Positions 3,377 through 25,490 are shown, counted from the first letter of the stretch. The stretch: 64,000 nucleotides of DNA from Novosphingobium sp. (GCA_031372185.1 JANMKT010000029.1:9010-73009), one strand, 5' to 3'. Translations and numbers: made by a program. Notes: generated by a model not told the origin, from the letters alone.

Positions 3377-5617
3377 ATGCCCAAACCCCAGCCTGGCCTG
3401 CCCAGCCCCAAACAGATCCTCGAATTCGTCGCCAGCTCTCCCACGCCCGCAGGCAAGCGCGAGATTGCCCGTCATTTCGGCCTCAAAGGGCAAGAGAAGA
3501 TCGCGCTCAAGGCGCTGCTCCGCGATATGACCGATGAGGGCCTGATCGACGGCGAAAAGCGGGCGTTCCACCGGATGGGCGGAGTGCCCAAGGTCACCGT
3601 ATTGCGGGTAATGGTGATCGAGGACGGCGAGGCCTTCGCCATCCCCGACAATTGGTCACCCGATGATGCCAGCCCTCCGCTGCGGCTGCGGCTGGTCGAA
3701 AAGGGTAGCCGCAGCGCGCTCAAAGTGGGCGACCGGGTGCTCGCCCGGACCGAGGAAGCGGGCGCCGGGTGGCGCGCGTTCCCGATGAAAAAGCTGCCCG
3801 CCAGCGAAGAGCAATTGCTCGGAGTGGTGGAAATTGACGGAGCGGGGAAGGGCTGGCTGGCTCCGGTCGACAAGCGGGTCCGCAACGCCTCGCCGATTGT
3901 CGATCTGGGCGGAGCGGAAGCGGGCAATCTGGTGCTGGCTGAACCTGCCGGGCGCTCGACCCGCGCAGGGGTCAAGGTCACTCAGATCCTCGGCGATCCG
4001 CTCGCGCCGCGCGCCTTCAGCCTGATTGCAATCCACAAGTACGGCATTCCCAATAGCTTCGACGAAGAAACGCTGGACGAGGCGGTGCTTGCTGCCAAAC
4101 TGCCATTGAGCGCCGAAAAGCGCGAGGATTTGCGCCACCTCCCGATTGTCGCGATCGATCCCAGCGATGCGCGCGATCATGACGATGCGATCTGGGCTGA
4201 GCCCGATGACGCGGGCGGTTTCCGGGCGCTGGTGGCCATCGCCGACGTCTCGTTTTATGTCCGCCCCGGCAGCCTGGTAGACCGGGAGGCGCGCAAACGC
4301 GGCAATTCGGTTTATTTTCCGGACCGGGTCGTGCCGATGCTGCCCGAAGTGCTGAGCGCCGATGTCTGCAGCCTGCGGGCCGGTGAGGACCGGGCGGCAA
4401 TGGCCTGCCATCTGGCAATCGATGCCGATGGCCAGGTGACGTCGTGGCGCTTCACCCGCGCCATCGTCCGGATCGCCGAAGTGATTGCCTATGAAGAAGC
4501 GCAAAAGCGGATTAATGAGGGGACAGCAGGGACAAGCTTGCAGAACCTGTGGGCCGCCTGGCGCGTGCTGGCTGCGGCCCGCGCTGCCCGTGATCCGCTC
4601 GACCTTGACCTGCCCGAGCGCCGGGTGATGCTGGATCAGCAGGGCCGGATTACCGAAATTGCCTTGCGCGAGAGGTTGGATGCGCACCGTGTGGTCGAGG
4701 ATTTCATGATTTCCGCCAATGTTGCGGCTGCCAAAGCGCTGGAAAGCAAGCTCGCGCCAGTGGTTTACCGAATCCACGAACCGCCGAGCCGGGAAAAGCT
4801 GGTTGCGCTGAAGGATTACCTCGCCAGCTTCGAGCGCAAGTTCGCACTGGGTCAGGTCATCACCCCCAGCCTATTCAACCGACTTCTCAAGGATGTCATC
4901 GATGATACTGAAAAGGCGCTGATCATGGAGGCGGTTCTGCGCAGCCAGACTCAGGCCTACTACGGACCGAGCAATGCCGGACATTTCGGATTAGCGCTGG
5001 CCAGCTACGCCCATTTCACCTCGCCAATCCGCCGTTATGCCGATCTTCTGGTTCACCGCGCGCTGGTCGATGCCTTCCACCTAGAACAGCCGGCACCACA
5101 AAACGGACTTCCCGCAGCCTCAGGCCTGTCGAGCCGCGACCGCGAAGATCTGGGCAAGGTCAGCGAAGCGATCAGCGCAACTGAGCGCCGCGCGATGATG
5201 GCTGAGCGCGAGACGACCGACCGTTATGTCGCCGCCTGGCTATCCGCCCGCGTGGGTGAGGTTTTTGCGACCCGGATCACCGGGGTCCAGAAATTCGGCT
5301 TTTTCGCCACCATCATTGGCCTTGGCGGTGATGGGCTGGTCCCGGTTTCAACGCTTGGTGCCGAGCGGTTTTCCTATGATGAAAGCGCCCAAGTGCTGAG
5401 CGGCGAGCAGAGCGGCACCAGCTATGCCATGGGTATGATCGTCCGCCTGCGTCTGGCCGAGGCCAATGCGCTGACCGGCGCGTTGAAGTTCGAGCTGGAA
5501 CAAGGCGGGAGCAGCAGGATCGAGCCGCGCGGCACCCGGCCTGTGAAACCGGGCAAACACATGGTCGGCAAGCGCGGTCGTCCCGGCAATATGCGGCACT
5601 CGAACCGCAAGAAATGA
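3377..5617 (+). CDS. rnr: ribonuclease R family exoribonuclease
   Basis: RNB motifs DPSDARDHDDA and HFTSPIRRYADL; C-terminal S1 domain; ATG at 3377 chosen over the upstream in-frame extension. Confidence 0.9.
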   Translation: MPKPQPGLPSPKQILEFVASSPTPAGKREIARHFGLKGQEKIALKALLRDMTDEGLIDGEKRAFHRMGGVPKVTVLRVMVIEDGEAFAIPDNWSPDDASPPLRLRLVEKGSRSALKVGDRVLARTEEAGAGWRAFPMKKLPASEEQLLGVVEIDGAGKGWLAPVDKRVRNASPIVDLGGAEAGNLVLAEPAGRSTRAGVKVTQILGDPLAPRAFSLIAIHKYGIPNSFDEETLDEAVLAAKLPLSAEKREDLRHLPIVAIDPSDARDHDDAIWAEPDDAGGFRALVAIADVSFYVRPGSLVDREARKRGNSVYFPDRVVPMLPEVLSADVCSLRAGEDRAAMACHLAIDADGQVTSWRFTRAIVRIAEVIAYEEAQKRINEGTAGTSLQNLWAAWRVLAAARAARDPLDLDLPERRVMLDQQGRITEIALRERLDAHRVVEDFMISANVAAAKALESKLAPVVYRIHEPPSREKLVALKDYLASFERKFALGQVITPSLFNRLLKDVIDDTEKALIMEAVLRSQTQAYYGPSNAGHFGLALASYAHFTSPIRRYADLLVHRALVDAFHLEQPAPQNGLPAASGLSSRDREDLGKVSEAISATERRAMMAERETTDRYVAAWLSARVGEVFATRITGVQKFGFFATIIGLGGDGLVPVSTLGAERFSYDESAQVLSGEQSGTSYAMGMIVRLRLAEANALTGALKFELEQGGSSRIEPRGTRPVKPGKHMVGKRGRPGNMRHSNRKK

Positions 5618-9714: not shown

Positions 9715-12189
9715 TTGCCGATTATTTCTCTGCAAGACCAACGTGATCCCTTGGTTACCAATGGCTTGACGATTGTGGGCGCAGGGGCGGTTGGAATTGC
9801 GATCGCGGTCTATCTGGCACGGCGAGGAATAGCGGTGACCTTGCTTGAGGGCGGGCCGCAGACTCCGCCCGCTGATTACTCAAAAGCCAATATTGGCCCA
9901 AATGTTGGCCGTCAGCTTGATGGCTTGCTGGGCGGACGAATGAAGGCATTTGGCGGCACGACGCGCCTTTGGGGTGGCCAGTTGGTCCCGTTCGACGCCC
10001 CGGATTTCCAGGCGATCGATCAAGCGGGGCGAACGCTTTGGCCGATTGGCTACAATGATTTTCTTCCCTGGATCAGCGCTGCCTATGATCTTCTCGGCGT
10101 TAATGAGCAGTCTCGGCAAATCGACAAAATCTGGCAGAGCGCCGCGGGGCAGGATCCTGCGATTGGCCATGGCCTTCGCATGACGATGAATATCTGGCTG
10201 AGACAACCGGATTTCACCAAGCTGTTCGCCTCGGCCCTGGCAAACAACCCGCTGATCCGGGTTATTACGGACGCTGCCGTCCAGCAATTGCAGTTCACAG
10301 CCGACGGACGGGTTGATGCGCTGATGCTGCTGGCAGCGGATGGCTCTGAATATACGTGCAAGGCGGAGACCATCATCCTGGCGAATGGAACGCTCGAAAT
10401 TGCCCGTCTGCTGCTGAAGGCTCAAAAGCTGGATCCACACTGCCCGTTTCGCGAAAATCGCCATGTTGGCCGGTGGTTCATGGATCACCTGCACGGCCTT
10501 GCCGGCGAGATTGAGGTTCGCAAGCCCAAGCGACTGTCCACCTGGTTCGACAACGTCTATTTCGATGGCCACAAGTACAATGTGAAGATCCGGCAGGATG
10601 CATCAGGGCGCAAGGCAGGCGGATCGAACATTGCCGCAACGATCAACCCGCGGATGCAAGCGGGATCGGTGGCACGCGAGGCTAAGGATCTGATGCTGCG
10701 CCTCTTTGGCGGCAGAACTTCGCTGATCGCTGATTTGCGCGAGGGATTGGTATTGTTGCGCATCATTGCGCCTGTCGCCTGGCGCTACGTTGTCAAACGC
10801 CGCGCCGGGAGCCTCTTTGATCAGGGGGTTCATCTCGGCCTGGAGATCGAGCAGTTACCGACTTGGGACAGCTATCTGCTGCTGGATCCCGCGTCACCTC
10901 CCGAAACGGCCCCGGTAGGCGTGCATTGGCACGTCGATAATCGCGAAATGCCGGCCATTCGGCAATTCTGCGAGGCGGTAATAAGTGCCTTTGACGAGAG
11001 CGGCATCGGCAGCATCAAGCTGGACCCCCGGATTGTCGCCGAAGACATTGCATTCCTTGATGAATGCCATGATGCCAACCACCAGATGGGCGGCGCACGA
11101 ATGGCCGATTGTCGAGAAAATGGCGTGGTCGATCACGAGTGCCGCGTGTTCGGATCGCCCAATCTCTATATTGCCGGTGCCGCGACTTTTCCGTCAGGCA
11201 GCTTTGCCAATCCGACCTTGAGTGCAATCGCGCTTGGCCTAAGGGTTGCAGCGAAAGTCACGGAAGCCGGGAGGTCCCGGGACACAGTGATCAGTCGCCT
11301 CATCTTTGGGACTGCGCGTCTCACCGGAGGAGCAAGCAAGGCAGCCTCTATCCGGATGCTCGACATGGTCCTCGATGCCGGTGTGCGAGCCATCGACTGT
11401 GCGCCGCCCTACGGCATGGGTACCGCCGAGCAGGTCGTTGGCAAGGCCTTGCAGCGCCGGATGGACGGCAACATGATCGAGATCATTGCGAAGGTCGGCT
11501 TGCCACGGCCATCACACGCCTACCCCAAGACGTGGTTGCGCGCGATCAAGCGGTTGGTGAAGAAGCCGATGCCTGCCAATCTTTCGGGATGGGCGCCGGT
11601 TGAGGCGGCGAAAGCCTTTGGTGTGAGCGACTTTTCGGACGAAGCGCTCGGTGCGTCGGTGGCCCGGACGATTAAAAATCTTGGTCGATTTGATCGGTTG
11701 TTGCTGCATGAGTGCGGTCCCGATGAGTATACTCCAGACGTCGCAAAATCACTTGCAGCAATTGCCGGACAATGGGGCGCACAACCCGGCTATGCCTGGG
11801 GCGCCAAGTTTGACCCAACGCTCAATGCCTGCTTTCCTGCCGATTACATGGCCGAATGCGCCATTGATCCCGGCATACTGGCTGGAACTTCAGCACCGCC
11901 TTTGCGTCCGGGCATTCTGTTCCATTCGGTTGTTCCGACCATGGGCTACCTGATGGCCAACGATCCCGCATTTTCAAAAGTGCTTGAGAAAGCGGCAGAG
12001 TTCCTGCTTGCTTTCGACAAGCCGACAGCGCGGATTGCCGTAACCTATGCACTGGCCGCTGAGCGGGCACCAACGGCCCGGTTCGTCTTTGCCTCGAACG
12101 ATCCGGTGCGGTTGCATGCGCTTCTCGCTGCATTCCAGACAATTGACCGGGAGAATCTTCGATCAAAAATCGCAGCATTGTTCGCATGA
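9715..12189 (+). CDS. GMC-family FAD oxidoreductase fused to an aldo/keto reductase domain
   Basis: N-terminal GAGAVG FAD motif, HQMGGARM, FPSGSFANPTL; C-terminal IDCAPPYG, AKVG, LLLHE; one uninterrupted 824-aa ORF. Confidence 0.8.
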   Translation: MPIISLQDQRDPLVTNGLTIVGAGAVGIAIAVYLARRGIAVTLLEGGPQTPPADYSKANIGPNVGRQLDGLLGGRMKAFGGTTRLWGGQLVPFDAPDFQAIDQAGRTLWPIGYNDFLPWISAAYDLLGVNEQSRQIDKIWQSAAGQDPAIGHGLRMTMNIWLRQPDFTKLFASALANNPLIRVITDAAVQQLQFTADGRVDALMLLAADGSEYTCKAETIILANGTLEIARLLLKAQKLDPHCPFRENRHVGRWFMDHLHGLAGEIEVRKPKRLSTWFDNVYFDGHKYNVKIRQDASGRKAGGSNIAATINPRMQAGSVAREAKDLMLRLFGGRTSLIADLREGLVLLRIIAPVAWRYVVKRRAGSLFDQGVHLGLEIEQLPTWDSYLLLDPASPPETAPVGVHWHVDNREMPAIRQFCEAVISAFDESGIGSIKLDPRIVAEDIAFLDECHDANHQMGGARMADCRENGVVDHECRVFGSPNLYIAGAATFPSGSFANPTLSAIALGLRVAAKVTEAGRSRDTVISRLIFGTARLTGGASKAASIRMLDMVLDAGVRAIDCAPPYGMGTAEQVVGKALQRRMDGNMIEIIAKVGLPRPSHAYPKTWLRAIKRLVKKPMPANLSGWAPVEAAKAFGVSDFSDEALGASVARTIKNLGRFDRLLLHECGPDEYTPDVAKSLAAIAGQWGAQPGYAWGAKFDPTLNACFPADYMAECAIDPGILAGTSAPPLRPGILFHSVVPTMGYLMANDPAFSKVLEKAAEFLLAFDKPTARIAVTYALAAERAPTARFVFASNDPVRLHALLAAFQTIDRENLRSKIAALFA

Positions 12190-12547: not shown

Positions 12548-13330
12548 ATGAAGCCCGAACAATTGTCTCTCGCGGATGGCTCAGGCAAGCTGCTGCTGGC
12601 TTCGATCCATGACGTCGGTCCGCGCTTTGAGCGCGAAGTCGATCAGCTTGCGGAGCTGCTGGTGCGGTGCCTGGGCGAACCGCGGTTTGCCATGCTGGTT
12701 GTGCCTGATCACTGGGGAGCGGCGCCGTTGCGCGAGGCTCCAGCCTTCGGCCGAAACCTGCGTGAGTGGTCCGACCAGGGCGTCGAGATATTCGTCCACG
12801 GCTGGTACCACAAAGACGAGGCCCGCCATTCACGGTTGGATCAAATAAAGGCACGGGTTCTTACCGCCAGCGAAGGTGAGTTTCTTGGCCTCGACCGACA
12901 GATCGCCGCGCAGCGAATGGCTGATGGCAAGGCATTGATTGAGGACATTATTGGCCGACCAGCCGCTGGCTTCATCGCGCCAGCCTGGCTTTATGGCCCG
13001 GGCGCGCATCAGGCACTGGCGCAGAGTGGCTTTGCCCTGGCCGAAGACCATATGCGGGTCTGGCAGCCCGCCACCGGTCATGTTGTCGCGCGCGGTCCGG
13101 TGATGACATGGGCCAGCCGGAGCCGATCGCGCCAGCTGAGTTCGCTCGCCTTTGCCGGACTTGCGCGATATTGCTTGCAAGGTCTGAAAGTGGCACGGGT
13201 CGCCGTTCACCCTGGTGATACCAGCGTTCCTGCACTGCTGGGAAGTATCGAGAAGACACTGAAAGCCTTCGCCAGGCGCAGACCGGCAGGGCGCTACGCC
13301 GATCTGCTGCGAGGACCAGCCATCGCATGA
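12548..13330 (+). CDS. polysaccharide deacetylase family (DUF2334-like)
   Basis: SIHDV, HGWYH, EGEF, GFIAPAW, RVAVHP motifs. Confidence 0.8.
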   Translation: MKPEQLSLADGSGKLLLASIHDVGPRFEREVDQLAELLVRCLGEPRFAMLVVPDHWGAAPLREAPAFGRNLREWSDQGVEIFVHGWYHKDEARHSRLDQIKARVLTASEGEFLGLDRQIAAQRMADGKALIEDIIGRPAAGFIAPAWLYGPGAHQALAQSGFALAEDHMRVWQPATGHVVARGPVMTWASRSRSRQLSSLAFAGLARYCLQGLKVARVAVHPGDTSVPALLGSIEKTLKAFARRRPAGRYADLLRGPAIA

Positions 13331-14454
13331 TGGAACCCATCAAGATCGCCGTGCCGATCCATAGTTTCGAGCCGGGCGGGGTTGAGCGGGTGGCACTCAA
13401 CCTGTGCCACGCGTGGACCGATTCCGGCGATGTCGTGAAAGTCGTGCTGGGGCGGCGCGACGGCGCCATGGCGCAGGTGGCACCCGGCCTCGATTACGTC
13501 GTTCGCAAAAGCATTATCCCAACCGCCTCCTTCGAGACCTTGTGGATGATCTGGTGCCTCTGGCGATTTCTCAGGCGTGAGGCAGTCGATCTGCTGTTCT
13601 GCCCGGGCAACAGCTACTCGGTGGTCGCCGTCGCGATGAAACTGCTGCTGGGAAGGCGTTGCCCGCCAGTGGTCGCAAAGATCAGCAACGATCTGGCCCG
13701 TCTTGATATGATTCCACCGGTACGTTGGGGCTATCGGCGCTGGCTGCGTCTGCAGGGACGCATCATTGAACGGTTCACCGGCATGGTCGAGGAAATGCGC
13801 GATGAAATCGCCAATGCAACCGGTGTGGCAGCGGCGCGGATCACAATAATCAAGGATCCGGCATTGACTGCGGAACAATTTGCCGTGCTTTCCGCAATTG
13901 GACGCGATGCTAGCGAACCGGAAGTGTCCCGCTACCTCGCTGTCGGCAGGCTGGCTCCGCAGAAGAACTTCGCACTTTTAATCCGCGCCTTCGCTGCGGC
14001 TGCACCATCCTACAGTGAGCTGGTAATCCTGGGCGAGGGGCCGGAGCGGCCTGCTCTGGAAGCTTTGGCTGCTAAGTTCGGCGTTGCAGATCGGGTATCG
14101 CTACCGGGGCACTGCAACGATACAGCAGCATGGTACCAAAACAGTTCCGCCTTCGTGATGTCCTCCGACTACGAGGGTGTTCCGGCCGTGATAATCGAGG
14201 CGCTGGCAGCAGGACTGCCTGTTGTAGCTACCGCTTGCAGCGTGGGCATGCCCGGATTGCTTGGCCATGGTGCCTTCGGTTTGCTTGTCCCCGCTCGAGA
14301 TGAAATCGGCTTTGGCAAGGCCCTGGAACGAATTCATGGGTTCCCCTTTGATGCTGCGGTGGCAAGATCAGCGGCAAACGCGTTCACCCTGGCGCAAGCA
14401 GCGCCGCGCTACCGGTCACTTTTTGTGGAAACGGCAGCTCCACGCGGACACTAA
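13327..14454 (+). CDS. GT4 glycosyltransferase (WabH/PglJ-like)
   Basis: GGVERV, AVGRLAPQKNF, SSDYEGVPAVIIEALAAG. Confidence 0.9.
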   Translation: MMEPIKIAVPIHSFEPGGVERVALNLCHAWTDSGDVVKVVLGRRDGAMAQVAPGLDYVVRKSIIPTASFETLWMIWCLWRFLRREAVDLLFCPGNSYSVVAVAMKLLLGRRCPPVVAKISNDLARLDMIPPVRWGYRRWLRLQGRIIERFTGMVEEMRDEIANATGVAAARITIIKDPALTAEQFAVLSAIGRDASEPEVSRYLAVGRLAPQKNFALLIRAFAAAAPSYSELVILGEGPERPALEALAAKFGVADRVSLPGHCNDTAAWYQNSSAFVMSSDYEGVPAVIIEALAAGLPVVATACSVGMPGLLGHGAFGLLVPARDEIGFGKALERIHGFPFDAAVARSAANAFTLAQAAPRYRSLFVETAAPRGH

Positions 14455-14570
14455 TATAAAAGACCTCAAATTCGATTACACCGTTCTGTAAGAATGAACC
14501 TGCACAAGCTGCGGAGTTTTCGTGTCCACGGCGTCAAAACTTTAGTCGCTGAACAACAAGGTCTGGATTA

Positions 14571-15503
14571 ATGCATCAAGAGACCCTCGGGCGTAGTCTG
14601 ACGACATCGAGGCTGGCTGGCCTGCTTCCTTCGGGCGAAAGATTGGGAACGCGCCGATTAGCGGGATTGTTCAGTGTTCTGATGTCGCTGGCGCTCCTGG
14701 TGATGGTGGCGGTTCAGTTCCACCGCCTTTCGGTTCCCCTGATGGCCGAAATGATCCCGGCATCCTTGGGATTCTGGGTTGTTTTCGTGCTCTATTATCT
14801 GGCAGGTCCATTCAGCGAATGGCTGATTTATCGTAAGCTGTGGAATCTTCCAGCAGCCGGGATCGGCGCATTGCTGCGCAAACTCGTCAGCAATGAACTG
14901 TTGCTCGGCTATCTGGGCGAGGCACAGTTCTATGCATGGGCGCGCGGTCGCCTGAACATGACAACCGCTCCCTTCGGCGCCATCAAGGATGTCACCATCC
15001 TTTCGGCACTGACTGGCAACATTGTCACCTTGATGATGCTAGCCTTGGCCTGGCCATTGGTAACCACCGGTGCGATCGGGATAGAGCTGAAAACGGCGTT
15101 TCTGTCTCTTGGCGTGGTGTTGGTCACTTCGTTGCTGATTTGGCTGTTTCGCCAGAGGCTGTTCACCCTGCCAAAAATTGACCTGTGGTTCATTTCCATC
15201 GTCCATGTTGTGCGGATAGTGGTTTTGCTCGGCCTGTCCGCACTGATGTGGCATCTGGTCTTGCCGCAGGTTGCGCTGGGCATGTGGCTGGTTCTGGCAA
15301 CGCTGCGCATGCTGGTTTCCAGACTTCCCTTTGTTCCCAACAAGGACGTCGTATTTGCCGGGCTTGCAGTCTTCCTGCTGGGGCACGAAGGACTGATTAT
15401 CAGTCTGATGGCGATGATGGCAGCAATTCTGCTTGTCACTCATCTCTGCGTTGGCGCGGCTTTCGCCGTAGCGGATCTAGTTGATTCCAGGAGAATTACA
15501 TGA
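14571..15503 (+). CDS. polytopic membrane protein, possible flippase-like (LPG synthase TM-like)
   Basis: About 8 hydrophobic segments; located inside the glycosyltransferase cluster; family call tentative. Confidence 0.55.
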   Translation: MHQETLGRSLTTSRLAGLLPSGERLGTRRLAGLFSVLMSLALLVMVAVQFHRLSVPLMAEMIPASLGFWVVFVLYYLAGPFSEWLIYRKLWNLPAAGIGALLRKLVSNELLLGYLGEAQFYAWARGRLNMTTAPFGAIKDVTILSALTGNIVTLMMLALAWPLVTTGAIGIELKTAFLSLGVVLVTSLLIWLFRQRLFTLPKIDLWFISIVHVVRIVVLLGLSALMWHLVLPQVALGMWLVLATLRMLVSRLPFVPNKDVVFAGLAVFLLGHEGLIISLMAMMAAILLVTHLCVGAAFAVADLVDSRRIT

Positions 15504-16030
15504 AGCGTCTGTCGATCATCCCGGCCTTGCTCGTCGTGGCCGCCGCGCCGGTTCCATCATCCCCCGATCTTGGCAAAGCCGAGGGGCTTTGCCGCGTTGG
15601 CGAAACCGGTCCTGCGCTGCTGATTGCAATCGATGGCCTCAAGGACCGGCAAGGATCGCTCAAGCTGGAGGTCTATCCATCCAATGATGCAGATTTTCTC
15701 CAGGATGACAATTTATTGATCAATGCCGGCAAGACCTTCCGGCGAGTTGAGCAGCCGGTCCCATCGTCAGGTCCTGTCACCCTGTGCATTCGGATTCCCG
15801 GCCCGGGTGCCTACAGCGTCTCGCTGCTTCACGACCGCGATATGAACCGAAAATTCGGCTGGACCATCGACGGGATTGGTTTCTCGGGTAATCCACGCCT
15901 TGGCTGGAGCAAGCCACACGCTGCAATCACGCGCATTATGGCCGCTGCAGGGGTCACGCGCACCGCGATCGTCCTCAACTACAAGCGTGGCCTGGGTGTC
16001 GCACCACTGCGACAGGCAGGAGCACGATAG
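15500..16030 (+). CDS. DUF2141 family secreted protein
   Basis: Signal peptide; GAYSVSLLHDRDMN...GIGFSGNP. Confidence 0.8.
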   Translation: MKRLSIIPALLVVAAAPVPSSPDLGKAEGLCRVGETGPALLIAIDGLKDRQGSLKLEVYPSNDADFLQDDNLLINAGKTFRRVEQPVPSSGPVTLCIRIPGPGAYSVSLLHDRDMNRKFGWTIDGIGFSGNPRLGWSKPHAAITRIMAAAGVTRTAIVLNYKRGLGVAPLRQAGAR

Positions 16031-17184
16031 TGAAAATAGTCGATGTCTGTGCGTTCTTTTCGCCGCAGGGGGGCGGGGTGAAGACCTATATCGAACAGAA
16101 GCTGGCAATCGGTCCTTCACTCGGTCATGACATCACCGTGCTGGCGCCCGGCGACAGTCATGAGGTGATCGAACGTGGCCCCGGTGCGCGGATCGTCACA
16201 ATCCCTTCGCCCCGTTTCCCGCTTGACCGCAAATACTGGTATTTCGCCGATGAGGTGGCGCTGCATGCTGCACTCGATGCCCAAGCACCCGATTTCGTCG
16301 AGGTCTCCTCGCCGTGGCGCAGCCCGGCGATGGTCGCGCGCTGGCAAGGTCAGGTACCCCGATCACTGATCATGCATGCAGACCCGCTTTCTGCCTACGC
16401 CTATCGCTGGCTCGAACCGGTGCTCTCGCGAGAGACAATCGACCGAAGGTTTGAGCCCTTCTGGTCACATTTGCGCACGCTGGGCCACTCTTTCGATCGT
16501 GTCGTTTGTGCCAGCCAGGAATTGCGCGAGCGGCTCGCTGCGGGCGGTGTGACCAACACGGCGCTGCATCCCATGGGTATCGAGGCCGGGTTGTTTTCGC
16601 CCGCCCGTCGCAACCTGCAACTGCGTCGCCAGCTTCTGGCGCTCTGCGACCTGACCGAGGATGCGCATTTGCTGATCGGCGTCGGGAGATTGTCAGCCGA
16701 GAAGCGCTGGCCAATGATTGTCGATGCAGTGGCAGCTGCCAGCCAATCGCGTCCGATCGGGTTGGTCGTTCTGGGCCACGGTAATCAGGAACACCGCATC
16801 GCGCGCCAGATTGCCGGCAATCCCCACATTCAAATCTTGAAGCCTGAACGCAATCGCGAAGCCTTCGCCGCGATGCTCGCCAGTGCTGATGCGCTGGTTC
16901 ACGGCTGCGAAGCGGAAACCTTTTGTATGGCCGCAGCCGAAGCGCGCGCCAGCGGGGTTCCAGTCGTCGTCCCGGACCGGGGCGGAGCGACTGACCATGC
17001 CCGAGATGGCGCAGGACAGACCTACCGGGCGGGAAATGCCTTGTCGGCGGCCAATGCGATCGGCAGAGTGCTCGAAAATTCACAACCTGTTGCCGTCACT
17101 GGGCAGGTGACCATGCAAGACCATTTCCGCGCATTGTTTGCCGACTATGCCGAGCTTGCCAGCAGGACTAGGCGGGTCGCCTGA
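16030..17184 (+). CDS. GT4 glycosyltransferase
   Basis: GGGVKTY, GVGRLSAEKR, ETFCMAAAEARASG. Confidence 0.88.
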   Translation: MKIVDVCAFFSPQGGGVKTYIEQKLAIGPSLGHDITVLAPGDSHEVIERGPGARIVTIPSPRFPLDRKYWYFADEVALHAALDAQAPDFVEVSSPWRSPAMVARWQGQVPRSLIMHADPLSAYAYRWLEPVLSRETIDRRFEPFWSHLRTLGHSFDRVVCASQELRERLAAGGVTNTALHPMGIEAGLFSPARRNLQLRRQLLALCDLTEDAHLLIGVGRLSAEKRWPMIVDAVAAASQSRPIGLVVLGHGNQEHRIARQIAGNPHIQILKPERNREAFAAMLASADALVHGCEAETFCMAAAEARASGVPVVVPDRGGATDHARDGAGQTYRAGNALSAANAIGRVLENSQPVAVTGQVTMQDHFRALFADYAELASRTRRVA

Positions 17185-18310
17185 CGGTTTTCAGCACGCG
17201 GCTGCCCAATCGCGAAATTGCCAGATCGACAGCACCCTCTTCGTGGTTCTGGGCGAAACGAAACAGCGTTGCCGTTACTATTGCCCAGGCTGACAGATGG
17301 ACAAGTGCCGCAAGGGCCGGCTGCGCCGAAAACCCGGTCTCGACCGCATGTGAAGTGCGCATGAACAGGACTATCGCTGCGATGCCGATGAATGCACCCG
17401 CACCACCGCTCTTGCGGCGTGGCGGCACGGCAAGCGCCAATGCAACCCACGGCAGGGCGAGGCAGAAGATTGCACTGGAAATGCGCGCCAGAAGGGCCGA
17501 CATAGCTGGACTTGTTTCACTCACCCGCACCTGCTCAAGCGCAGCTTTGCGCCCAAGCTCAAGCGACGGCATCCGATCAAGCCGGTCGAGCAGTGGCAGA
17601 CGGATTGCCTGTTCTTGCTTCAGATCAAATGCCATCCGGTATTTTCCGAAACGCAAGACCCGGTTCTGACCATCGGCTTGTCTCTGCACCGCGAGTCCAT
17701 TTTCGAGCTCAAGTTCGATCCGCCCGTCTTGACCCCTTCTCGCGTTGGCATGCGCAGCCGAATAGGTCGTATCGCCGCGACTGATAAAGACGCTTCCGAC
17801 ACCGGTTTGTCCAACCGATACGGGGGCAGCATAAAGATCGGTCTGACTGTCGAGCGAGATGAATTCATCGAGTGGAATAGGCAGCCCGAAGGTACCGTTG
17901 CGGACCTCGATTGAAATCTCATCAAGCGCGCGTTCGCCCCATGGCTCAACCTCCATCCTGATTGCCAACAAGGTCAGGGCCGCCAATGCGGCGATCAGCA
18001 TCGGTGCAAGCAGCATACGCGCGGGTGACTGACCCAATGCAGCGAACAATTGCCACTCGCCGCGCCGCGCCATCGAACGAATTGCCCACGCCGGGGCAAT
18101 GAAGCTGGCGAGTGGCAGAGCAACGGCGAGATATTCCGGAATCAGTGCTGACATCATACGGATCATCAGCAGAGCCGGGGCGTTGGTTCCCCCCGCAATG
18201 CCCCAGAGCCGCGGAATGTTCTCGAGACTCAACATGGCGACCACAATGGCAAGTGTGGCAACGAAGGGCGCGAATTCCTGACGCGCAAGATAGCGGTCCA
18301 GGTCTGTCAT
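17168..18310 (-). CDS. LptF/LptG family permease (stand-alone paralog)
   Basis: LDRYLARQ, ALIPEYL..ALP, GEWQLFAALG, periplasmic beta-rich region, three C-terminal TM helices; ATG 18310 (alternative TTG 18340). Confidence 0.8.
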   Translation of the reverse strand: MTDLDRYLARQEFAPFVATLAIVVAMLSLENIPRLWGIAGGTNAPALLMIRMMSALIPEYLAVALPLASFIAPAWAIRSMARRGEWQLFAALGQSPARMLLAPMLIAALAALTLLAIRMEVEPWGERALDEISIEVRNGTFGLPIPLDEFISLDSQTDLYAAPVSVGQTGVGSVFISRGDTTYSAAHANARRGQDGRIELELENGLAVQRQADGQNRVLRFGKYRMAFDLKQEQAIRLPLLDRLDRMPSLELGRKAALEQVRVSETSPAMSALLARISSAIFCLALPWVALALAVPPRRKSGGAGAFIGIAAIVLFMRTSHAVETGFSAQPALAALVHLSAWAIVTATLFRFAQNHEEGAVDLAISRLGSRVLKTVRRPA

Positions 18311-23936: not shown

Positions 23937-25490
23937 ATGGCCGAACCTTTCTACATTACCACCGCGATCAGCTATCCCAACGGCAAGCCGCATATCGGCC
24001 ATGCCTATGAAGCGATTGCCGCCGATGTGATCGCCCGGTTTCAGCGGCAAATGGGCCGCGATGTGCGGTTTCAGACCGGCACCGACGAGCATGGCTTGAA
24101 GATGGCCCAAAAGGCGCGCGAGCTGGGCGTGACGCCGGCTGAACTTGCCGATGAAATGTCGCAATATTTCATTGATATGTGTGATAAGCTCAATGTCAGT
24201 TATGACGTTTTCCAACGCACGACCGAACCGCGCCACCACCTTGCCAGCCAGGAACTGTGGCGGCGGATGGAAGCCAATGGCGATCTCTACCTCGATCGCT
24301 ACGAAGGCTGGTACTCGATCCGCGACGAAGCCTATTACGATGAAAGCGAGTTGATCGAAGGGGAGGGGACTGAAAAACTCTCGCCGCAAGGCACGCCGGT
24401 TGAATGGACGGTCGAGGAAAGCTGGTTTTTCCGCCTGTCGAACTATGGAGATCGTTTGCTGGCGCTTTATACCGACAATGCAGACTGGTTGCAGCCCGAT
24501 AGCCGCCGCAACGAAATCATGCGCTTCGTCGAAGGAGGCTTGCGCGATCTGTCGGTCTCGCGGACCAGCTTCGATTGGGGGGTCAAGGTTCCCGGCAGCG
24601 AAAAGCACGTCATGTATGTCTGGGTTGATGCGCTTACCAACTATCTGACCGGGTTAGGTTTTCCTGATGACACACCGGAAATGCAGAAATGGTGGCCGGC
24701 TGATATTCACCTGATCGGCAAAGATATTGTCCGCTTTCACGCGGTCTACTGGCCAGCCTTCCTGTGGAGCGCAGGACTGGAATTGCCCAAACAGGTGTTC
24801 GGGCATGGTTTCTTGCTCAACCGGGGGCAAAAGGAATCGAAGTCACTCGGCAATGTCACCGATCCGATTGAATTGGCGGAACGCTATGGCGTTGATGTGC
24901 TGCGCTATTTCCTGATGCGCGAAGTCCCATTCGGGCAGGACGGCAGCTATTCGCCCGAAGCGATTGTTTTGCGGGCGAATGCTGAACTTGCGAACAGTTT
25001 TGGAAATCTGGCGCAGCGCACATTATCCATGGTCTTCAAGAATCTGGATGGCAAGGTGCCAGCGTGGGGCAATGCGCCGGAAGACACCAAACTGCGTTCA
25101 CAGGTAAGAAGTGCTGTGCTGAATGATTTGCTTCAAGAATTCCAGAAACTGTCATTCTCGACAGGACTTGAAGCATGGATGAAAGCTGTATTTGCTTGCA
25201 ATGCCTATGTTGATGAAATGGCACCATGGGCGTTACGAAAAAGCGATCCGGCACGAATGACTGAGGTGCTTGGGACACTCTACCGCTGCATCATCGATTT
25301 AGCGATCGGACTGATCCCGATTGCGCCGACGTCAGCTAATAACCTGCTTGATGCAATGGGTGTAGCAATGACTGATCGTGATTTTGACTGGATAGCCAAC
25401 GGCAATCCGGGCAATCCGACAGCCCATGTCGTAGAGCAACCCACACCCATATTCCCCCGCCTCGAACTCCCCGCCGAAGAAACCGCCTGA
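23937..25490 (+). CDS. metG: methionine--tRNA ligase
   Basis: PHIGH (HIGH), GTDEHG, GKDIVRFH, KESKS (KMSKS variant). Confidence 0.97.
   Translation: MAEPFYITTAISYPNGKPHIGHAYEAIAADVIARFQRQMGRDVRFQTGTDEHGLKMAQKARELGVTPAELADEMSQYFIDMCDKLNVSYDVFQRTTEPRHHLASQELWRRMEANGDLYLDRYEGWYSIRDEAYYDESELIEGEGTEKLSPQGTPVEWTVEESWFFRLSNYGDRLLALYTDNADWLQPDSRRNEIMRFVEGGLRDLSVSRTSFDWGVKVPGSEKHVMYVWVDALTNYLTGLGFPDDTPEMQKWWPADIHLIGKDIVRFHAVYWPAFLWSAGLELPKQVFGHGFLLNRGQKESKSLGNVTDPIELAERYGVDVLRYFLMREVPFGQDGSYSPEAIVLRANAELANSFGNLAQRTLSMVFKNLDGKVPAWGNAPEDTKLRSQVRSAVLNDLLQEFQKLSFSTGLEAWMKAVFACNAYVDEMAPWALRKSDPARMTEVLGTLYRCIIDLAIGLIPIAPTSANNLLDAMGVAMTDRDFDWIANGNPGNPTAHVVEQPTPIFPRLELPAEETA

Follow-up and report, generated by a model that had tools for sequence, protein, structure and literature searches.

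In sphingomonads, glycosphingolipids (GSLs) take the place of lipopolysaccharide (LPS), set the properties of the outer membrane and are ligands of natural killer T cells (CD1d), and GSLs with an oligosaccharide head group are made by some of these bacteria only. From the structural work of Kawahara and Zähringer, GSL-3/GSL-4A is said to be Man-alpha1,2-Gal-alpha1,6-GlcN-alpha1,4-GlcA-alpha-Cer, that is mannose (Man), galactose (Gal), glucosamine (GlcN), glucuronic acid (GlcA) and ceramide (Cer), with all linkages alpha. In the searchable literature, only the transferase of the first sugar (Cer-GlcAT/Sgt1) has been genetically identified, plus Sgt2 in Caulobacter. The ceramide glucuronosyltransferases of Zymomonas mobilis and Sphingobium yanoikuyae are, as they are cited in PMC13318209, the characterised sphingomonad GSL-1 synthases (Okino et al. 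2020). In Caulobacter, the family 4 glycosyltransferases (GT4) Sgt1 and Sgt2, encoded by adjacent genes, glycosylate ceramide in sequence with a hexuronic acid (HexA) and then a second sugar, which is a hexose (Stankeviciute et al. 2019, PMC6445935). In the same organism, sphingolipid export requires the permease paralogs LptF2/LptG2, which work with its one LptB (Uchendu, Isom & Klein 2026, preprint 10.64898/2026.04.12.717747), and the crossing of the inner membrane by sphingolipids is called 'a mystery' in the literature. A related logic is found in gpgSDF, the glucosaminyl-phosphatidylglycerol system of Pseudomonas aeruginosa, with hexSDF as its counterpart in Clostridioides difficile (Khan, Palmer & Guan 2025, PMC12713373). 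In the present study, we analyzed a stretch of 64,000 nucleotides from Novosphingobium sp. (GCA_031372185.1, JANMKT010000029.1:9010-73009; hereafter the window), in which a module of six genes encodes a DUF2334 deacetylase, two GT4 enzymes (GT4a and GT4b), a polytopic membrane protein, a DUF2141 protein and a permease of the LptF type (LptF3; Table 1). Our literature search gave no description of this module and no genes assigned to the GlcN step or to the later sugars of GSL-3/GSL-4-type lipids.

We think it reasonably probable that the module adds free GlcN and a further sugar to the outer-membrane GSL and aids its export. Gene content, synteny, a nested distribution, a restriction to genomes with a gene like that of serine palmitoyltransferase (Spt) and a placement in sphingolipid loci were all observed directly. 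The genome of the window (2.64 Mb, 120 contigs, 94.6% complete) has its nearest protein relatives among proteins named Novosphingobium or Sphingomonadales. Its Spt is encoded on contig C103 (793 bits, against an alphaproteobacterial equivalog cut-off of 670) and LpxC was not found in the genome, hence the strain can be regarded as an LPS-less, sphingolipid-producing sphingomonad. Another candidate for spt, at locus L002, was ruled out as it is a 5-aminolevulinate synthase.

To describe the distribution within the order, 301 genomes were sampled evenly across the GTDB order (86 genera). The deacetylase was present in 41 of them, one being a spurious weak match, which leaves 40 real cases in 18 genera. 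GT4b was found in 75 genomes, including all of these 40, and was missing from the other 226; ten genomes of the window's own genus are without both genes. A core GT4 encoded on contig C16, outside the window, occurred in 223 genomes. Among these are essentially all of the family f1, where the identity is 55-84% and one copy is the rule, as well as every one of the 75 genomes with GT4b. Successive steps of one pathway would be expected to leave such a nested pattern (40 within 75 within 223), and the patchy distribution of the module fits the general knowledge that only some sphingomonads make oligosaccharide GSLs.

The synteny was examined in regions of 20 kb around the deacetylase in the 40 genomes. 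The usual order, spread over at least 18 genera, was deacetylase-GT4a-membrane protein-DUF2141-GT4b, in which the deacetylase, the membrane protein and GT4b were constant, DUF2141 was nearly always present and GT4a was found in 25 loci and missing from 15. Since the same set is syntenic in 40 other genomes, the gene grouping is not a matter of chance. The genes that flank the module in the window are not kept around it elsewhere, so it behaves as an accessory unit located in differing places. In a few genomes, GT4b and the deacetylase alone are adjacent, which is the gpgS-gpgD arrangement, and genomes without the deacetylase retain the trio of membrane protein, DUF2141 and GT4b. Two copies of the module (L078 on contig C25 and L042 on contig C31) were seen in one congener, G274; one copy is complete and the other has no deacetylase gene, but some 5.5 kb downstream of it lies a remnant of 53 aa that resembles the deacetylase.

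The sample taken beyond the order comprised 400 alphaproteobacterial genomes (308 genera). The deacetylase was found there in one further genus and GT4b-like proteins in three further genera (37-41% identity). All three of these carry Spt-like genes (440-540 bits, with the HemA/Kbl paralogs at about 200 bits), except for one 67%-complete genome, of three in genus g111, whose best Spt-like match scored 232 bits. A preliminary description of the locus, made from its sequence, had named co-occurrence with Spt as a check and a cluster common in genomes lacking spt as evidence against a role in sphingolipid synthesis; we found that, across the 301 and 400 genomes, the deacetylase and GT4b families occur only in genera with an Spt-like gene. 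In each of the three outside genera the GT4b-like gene adjoins a C16-type GT4 gene (46-52% identity), near LptF/G paralogs. In genus g243, a stretch of 13 kb about 10 kb from spt holds sphingolipid and module-type genes in the order CerR-like epimerase-family, AMP-binding (acyl-ACP-synthetase-like), DUF2141, LptG, LptF, membrane-protein homologue, ATP-grasp, GT2, GT4b-like and C16-type GT4. The Caulobacter sphingolipid locus has a parallel gene content, and the transferase pair parallels ccna_00793/ccna_00792 (sgt1/sgt2). The general idea of a locus for GSL head-group synthesis and export, as first described, was thus supported by an Spt-positive and LpxC-negative genome, by the restriction to spt carriers and by the placement in sphingolipid loci, whereas its assignments of individual enzymes were not. 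In these non-sphingomonad loci, a GT2 gene separates the GT4 pair from the transport genes (L168, 8036-9870, G601; L159, 9174-9977, G325), accompanied in G601 by a TupA-like ATP-grasp gene, which suggests a further, different head-group chemistry in those lineages. In addition, the matches listed for the GT4b family include Emcibacter, Govanella unica, Rhodothalassium salexigens, Maricaulaceae, Parvularculaceae and one 'Bradymonadia' metagenome-assembled genome, and because of this occurrence glycosylated sphingolipids may be wider in marine alphaproteobacteria than has been documented.

According to the preliminary description, the enzyme starting at 16030 (GT4b) is the ceramide glucuronosyltransferase, the one starting at 13327 (GT4a) adds N-acetylglucosamine (GlcNAc), and the deacetylase then yields GlcN. 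GT4b is indeed a lipid-type GT4, with orthologues of 70-83% identity within Novosphingobium, and GT4a does have a weak similarity of the PglJ/BshA type. However, an enzyme that is lacking in 75% of the order, including the ten congeners which still have Spt-type biology, cannot be the universal ceramide uronosyltransferase. The C16 GT4, present in essentially every Sphingomonadaceae genome, fits this role instead. Its identity across genera agrees with the 62-69% published between Novosphingobium Sgt1a and the characterised Zymomonas/Sphingobium ceramide glucuronosyltransferases (PMC13318209), and at 385 aa it is as long as Sgt1a, with orthologues that bear the same NCBI name, 'glycosyltransferase family 1 protein'. 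It is therefore likely the ceramide uronosyltransferase of this genome, of the Sgt1a/Cer-GlcAT type, which it resembles in length, annotation name and conservation level; neither GT4 of the module fits this role. As a GlcNAc transferase, GT4a suffers from its absence in the 15 deacetylase loci noted above, all in genomes which do have GT4b. Furthermore, the HexNAc-transferase-like signature ascribed to it turned out to be generic similarity of the GT4 C-terminal domain (TIGR03088 as best NCBIfam match with 108 bits, PglJ 86, BshA 52, and PDB matches that are generic GT4 too), which at the level of sequence does not indicate a donor sugar. The scheme with GT4b as the ceramide glucuronosyltransferase is on these grounds very improbable.

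GT4b possesses both GT4 domains (PF13579/PF13439 N-terminal and PF00534/PF13692 C-terminal, all above their cut-offs). It is accessory (75 of 301 genomes) and present wherever the deacetylase is, and for this reason we consider it likely to be a transferase of N-acetylhexosamine (HexNAc), of the Sgt2 type. Since the deacetylase is always accompanied by GT4b but often not by GT4a, the N-acetylated compound on which it acts would most simply be what GT4b makes. Distribution and gene neighbourhood support the general idea that GlcNAc is attached first and then loses its acetyl group to become GlcN, with GT4b in the place first given to GT4a. GT4a is an optional component and probably adds a later sugar.

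Comparison with the Caulobacter pair showed both likenesses and differences. GT4b-like and C16-type GT4 genes are adjacent, like sgt1 and sgt2, in seven lineages overall (L159-161, L168-170, L178, L185, L186, L192), and in four lineages, among deacetylase-less genomes of the order sample, the gene that directly follows the C16-type GT4 is GT4b. GT4b orthologues (383-386 aa, NCBI name 'glycosyltransferase') share name and length with Sgt2 of N. oxfordense, which in the published table is 43.8% identical to Caulobacter Sgt2 (PMC13318209), and a published similarity network groups Novosphingobium proteins of this name and length with Sgt2. On the other hand, in the window's genome the Sgt2-like gene lies apart from the Sgt1-like gene, GT4b is coupled to a deacetylase, a second GT4, an unclassified membrane protein, DUF2141 and an LptF-type paralog, and the predicted second sugar is HexNAc or hexosamine (HexN), not hexose. 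No Caulobacter or Zymomonas proteins (the Caulobacter Sgt2 reference being ACL94257) were among the 120 best matches listed in each of three homologue searches, one of them with a profile of the GT4b family; a single scan of genome contigs gave close sphingomonad relatives only. Parts of the module resemble Sgt1/Sgt2, gpgSDF and LptF2/G2; for GT4b, the support for a place in the Sgt2 family is indirect.

The deacetylase belongs to PF10096, its score being well above the gathering cut-off of 26, and it matches the GpgD model NF053788 over model positions 3-227 of 241 with 133 bits (E 1e-38) against a cut-off of 280. By sequence, it is a distant homologue of GpgD that falls below the equivalog threshold. 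Eight residues are invariant in 36 orthologues (H38, D39, H101, H105, D107, E128, H238 and D241), and the family profile weakly matches the peptidoglycan deacetylase 3QBU of carbohydrate esterase family 4 (CE4). The enzyme is predicted to be cytoplasmic because neither a signal peptide nor a transmembrane (TM) segment was found in it.

These similarities bring in the main competing explanation, in which the module is an aminoglycolipid operon of the gpgSDF/hexSDF type. GT4b would then place GlcNAc on phosphatidylglycerol or a glycosyl-diacylglycerol, and the resulting cationic GlcN glycerolipid would modulate membrane charge with no ceramide involved. The best NCBIfam matches are indeed GpgD and GpgS (133 and 156 bits), the combination of a lipid-type GT4, a COG3233/DUF2334 deacetylase and a membrane protein follows the logic of gpgSDF, and Caulobacter also makes HexA-diacylglycerol glycolipids. 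The chemistry that we propose, GlcNAc on a lipid followed by N-deacetylation to cationic GlcN, would likewise be shared. Nevertheless, both scores are far under the cut-offs of 280 and 480 (the latter for GpgS, NF053787), and the unrelated C16 GT4 equals the GpgS score. The membrane protein is not a UPF0104/YbhN (GpgF) protein, and the additional GT4, DUF2141 and the LptF paralog have no counterpart in gpgSDF. With two equivalog cut-offs missed and no UPF0104 protein, no defining sequence test places the module inside that system. The predicted acceptor is also a different one, uronosyl-ceramide in place of phosphatidylglycerol or diacylglycerol. Finally, the families are confined to Spt-like genomes, where they stand beside an Sgt1-like transferase, spt, cerR-like and LptF/G genes, and, of the alphaproteobacterial genera sampled outside the order, just one was seen to have the deacetylase. 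We therefore hold a glycerolipid product to be unlikely.

For the addition of GlcN to the GSL, the following steps can be proposed. The core Sgt1-type GT4 (C16) would first produce uronosyl-ceramide (GSL-1). At the cytoplasmic face, the Sgt2-type GT4b would add a HexNAc, probably alpha-GlcNAc from UDP-GlcNAc, and the GpgD-like deacetylase, by analogy with gpgS/gpgD, would remove the acetyl group to give free GlcN. Where it is present, GT4a might add a further (third) hexose, leading to a GSL-3-like trisaccharide. The membrane protein, DUF2141 and the LptF-type paralog may then flip the enlarged, partly cationic lipid and extract it through the Lpt machine to the outer membrane. We infer the acceptor lipid and the donor sugars in this scheme, and the transport roles are suggested by gene association. 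The all-alpha linkages reported for GSL-3/GSL-4A are consistent with retaining GT4 enzymes, and the GlcN reportedly linked to GlcA is consistent with the presence of a deacetylase.

Several observations weigh against this scheme. In the study of N. oxfordense, an Sgt2 homologue was found and no diglycosyl GSL was detected. The core C16 GT4 scores 163 bits with the GpgS model, equal to GT4b, so that this match means just 'lipid-type GT4'. The Sgt1 and Sgt2 assignments were made from distribution, adjacency, names, lengths and published identity tables and not from direct alignment. In the GT4b tree, the linkage to a deacetylase does not form a single clade and implies at least seven gains or losses; as Caulobacter Sgt2 adds a hexose, this makes the donor sugar of GT4b uncertain. 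The structure searches gave no mechanistic homologue for the membrane protein or for DUF2141. In this strain the Lpt context is incomplete, because the canonical LptF-LptG pair is missing from the assembly. On the same tree, the deacetylase linkage is clustered (8 changes, versus 20 in shuffles), and the window's GT4b belongs to a clade of 30 members, 27 of which are deacetylase-linked. A separate clade of deacetylase-linked GT4b, as would mark a switch of donor, was looked for and ruled out, the linkage being clustered and not confined to one clade.

The LptF-type gene matches PF03739 over its full length, far above the cut-off of 27.9, and is thus a member of the family. With the TIGR04407 LptF model it scores 115 bits (cut-off 230) and with LptG 60 bits, which is below the level of a canonical LptF. 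The protein has six TM helices, in the form of 3 + 3 hydrophobic segments around a periplasmic domain (residues 128-277), and no LptG gene is adjacent. A canonical LptF-LptG pair of adjacent genes (190-250 bits) was present in each of the 16 relatives examined; in Sphingomonas-type genomes the pair lies beside spt. The genomes with a module-adjoining Lpt gene carry that gene as an extra, far more divergent copy (88-186 bits). Of the 40 loci, 11 have such a divergent LptF/G gene next to the module, and these come from four families (three besides the window's own). In the tree, every module-linked copy groups with LptF and apart from LptG, a split with 100% SH-aLRT support. From the sequences of the relatives, then, the gene is a third paralog, of the LptF type and without its own LptG, in agreement with the lone LptF/G paralog of the preliminary description. 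In the window's assembly, neither hidden Markov model searches nor tblastn found the canonical pair, and the LptF-type gene is the sole PF03739 gene detected. As the assembly is 94.6% complete, the missing pair is likely due to an assembly gap.

Like LptF2/LptG2 of Caulobacter, this is an LptF/G permease gene close to sphingolipid genes, with a presumed LptB-powered extraction from the inner membrane. Unlike them, it is a single gene of the LptF type with no LptG partner, comes on top of a canonical pair in the relatives, evolves fast and is linked to a glycan-extension module rather than to spt. The Caulobacter work reported that S. wittichii has one LptFG pair only and did not describe a third paralog tied to glycan extension (10.64898/2026.04.12.717747). 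We propose, from its gene association, that LptF3 may be a substrate-specific subunit of the LptB-driven GSL exporter.

For none of 39 orthologues of the membrane protein did sequence searches of Pfam, NCBIfam and PDB give a match. The AlphaFold2 (AF2) model of the protein (pLDDT 83, pTM 0.80) had no match in the PDB by Foldseek (best E 0.3, TM <= 0.21), and a full profile search among 1.84 billion proteins found the family in 716 clusters at 50% identity. These results point to a small unclassified family and not to a divergent UPF0104. Accordingly, a flippase of the GpgF/MprF type (UPF0104) was rejected as a candidate by sequence, fold and the tiny size of the family; none of the 39 orthologues matches PF03706 (UPF0104/YbhN) even at E <= 1. 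The gene adjoins GT4b in most of about 60 loci and stands beside LptF/LptG in one spt locus, and from this position and association we propose the protein as a candidate flippase or export adaptor for the extended GSL.

The DUF2141 protein is a member of PF09912 (cut-off 24.4). It has a hydrophobic signal-like segment at residues 4-22, and in its AF2 model (pLDDT 88, all-beta) it takes the form of a beta-sandwich; it models as a secreted, periplasmic protein. A resemblance to an LptA/LptC jellyroll or a known lipid binder was looked for, and Foldseek gave no significant match (best E 0.09). The literature mentions DUF2141 in two settings only: next to crtG in Sphingomonadales, and in Bacteroides LptZ, a protein associated with the Lpt machine, of which it forms the C-terminal domain. 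The position and association of the gene make the protein a candidate periplasmic accessory, proposed to serve in hand-over during GSL export. A second DUF2141 paralog, 31% identical to the module copy, was observed outside the window on contig C74 (about 24984-25283, plus strand) and may be the crtG-associated copy of Sphingomonadales carotenoid loci.

It is conceivable, though we would give it rather less than even chances, that the membrane protein, DUF2141 and LptF3 together form a dedicated route for GSLs with large head groups, with the membrane protein as the sphingolipid flippase and LptF3 replacing the housekeeping LptF in an LptB2-F3-G complex.

With regard to the arrangement of the locus, open reading frames (ORFs) are given in window coordinates and families by Pfam and NCBIfam profiles (Table 1).

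Table 1. Coordinates, strand and best family match of the module genes and of the core GT4.
Feature	Position	Strand	Family match or distribution
DUF2334 (COG3233-type) deacetylase	12497/12548-13330	+	PF10096, 66.9 bits
GT4a, retaining GT4 glycosyltransferase	13327-14454	+	Glyco_trans_1_4, 107.7 bits
Polytopic membrane protein, 310 aa, about 8 hydrophobic helices	14571-15503	+	no Pfam/NCBIfam match
DUF2141 protein, signal-like N-terminal segment	15500-16030	+	PF09912, 53.9 bits
GT4b, lipid-type GT4 glycosyltransferase	16030-17184	+	best NCBIfam match NF053787 (GpgS), 156 bits
LptF_LptG permease (LptF3)	17168-18340/18310	-	PF03739, 130 bits
Core GT4, 385 aa	contig C16, about 3677-4831 (outside window)	-	orthologues in 223 of 301 genomes of the order

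All six ORFs lie where the preliminary description had placed them, with the shared orientation, the overlaps and the convergent Lpt gene; its outer ends, 12548 and 18310, are internal ATG codons of two longer ORFs and the likely starts of the deacetylase and LptF-type genes. Stop and start codons overlap as ATGA at 13327-13330 and 15500-15503 and as TAGTG at 16028-16032, as read from the sequence, and GT4b and the LptF-type gene converge with a 17-nt overlap. The sole sizeable intergenic space in the module is an AT-rich gap of 116 nt (14455-14570) between the genes of GT4a and the membrane protein, which could hold an internal promoter; a scan for consensus promoters and terminators gave nothing above shuffled background, including in this gap. 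The flanks consist of an oxidoreductase gene upstream and the cell-wall genes MltB/RlpA/DacC downstream. The upstream gene (9715-12189, plus strand) encodes an 824-aa GMC FAD-oxidoreductase fused to an aldo/keto-reductase (AKR) domain. This GMC-AKR fusion was ruled out as a member of the module, and since it is syntenic in none of the 40 related loci it is probably unrelated to it.

The surroundings also bear on a last explanation, namely that the glycan which the module decorates is non-lipid or polyprenol-linked (an exopolysaccharide, a capsule or a protein glycan, for example) and that the link of the module with sphingolipids is incidental. Polysaccharide loci often contain GT4 enzymes and CE4-like deacetylases, and sphingomonads do make sphingan exopolysaccharides. 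Against this, there is no priming phosphoglycosyltransferase, Wzx/Wzy/Wza/Wzc or ABC-type exporter in or near the module. As had been described before, no Wzx/Wzy/Wza/Wzc-type genes lie in the 9-22 kb part of the window, and Pfam and NCBIfam searches of the flanks gave no genes of polysaccharide polymerisation or export. In addition, an LptF-type permease recurs beside the module, and its families are embedded in spt loci. We consider a glycan role to be hardly credible.

The module represents a compact and testable set of candidates, comprising two transferases, a deacetylase, an unclassified membrane protein, a periplasmic protein and a third LptF paralog. Named cultured carriers, including Novosphingobium kunmingense CGMCC 1.12274, N. 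rosa NBRC 15208, N. flavum NBRC 111647 and N. aerophilum 4Y4, are on hand for knock-outs, so that the later steps of bacterial GSL synthesis and transport are turned into specific knock-out and assay experiments. The nested distribution (40, 75 and 223 of the 301 genomes) could also be used to predict from the genome which sphingomonads make complex, partly cationic GSLs. If the LptB2-F3-G arrangement proves to be true, it would represent subunit swapping in the Lpt machine, which would thereby be retuned for a larger, glucosamine-bearing lipid.

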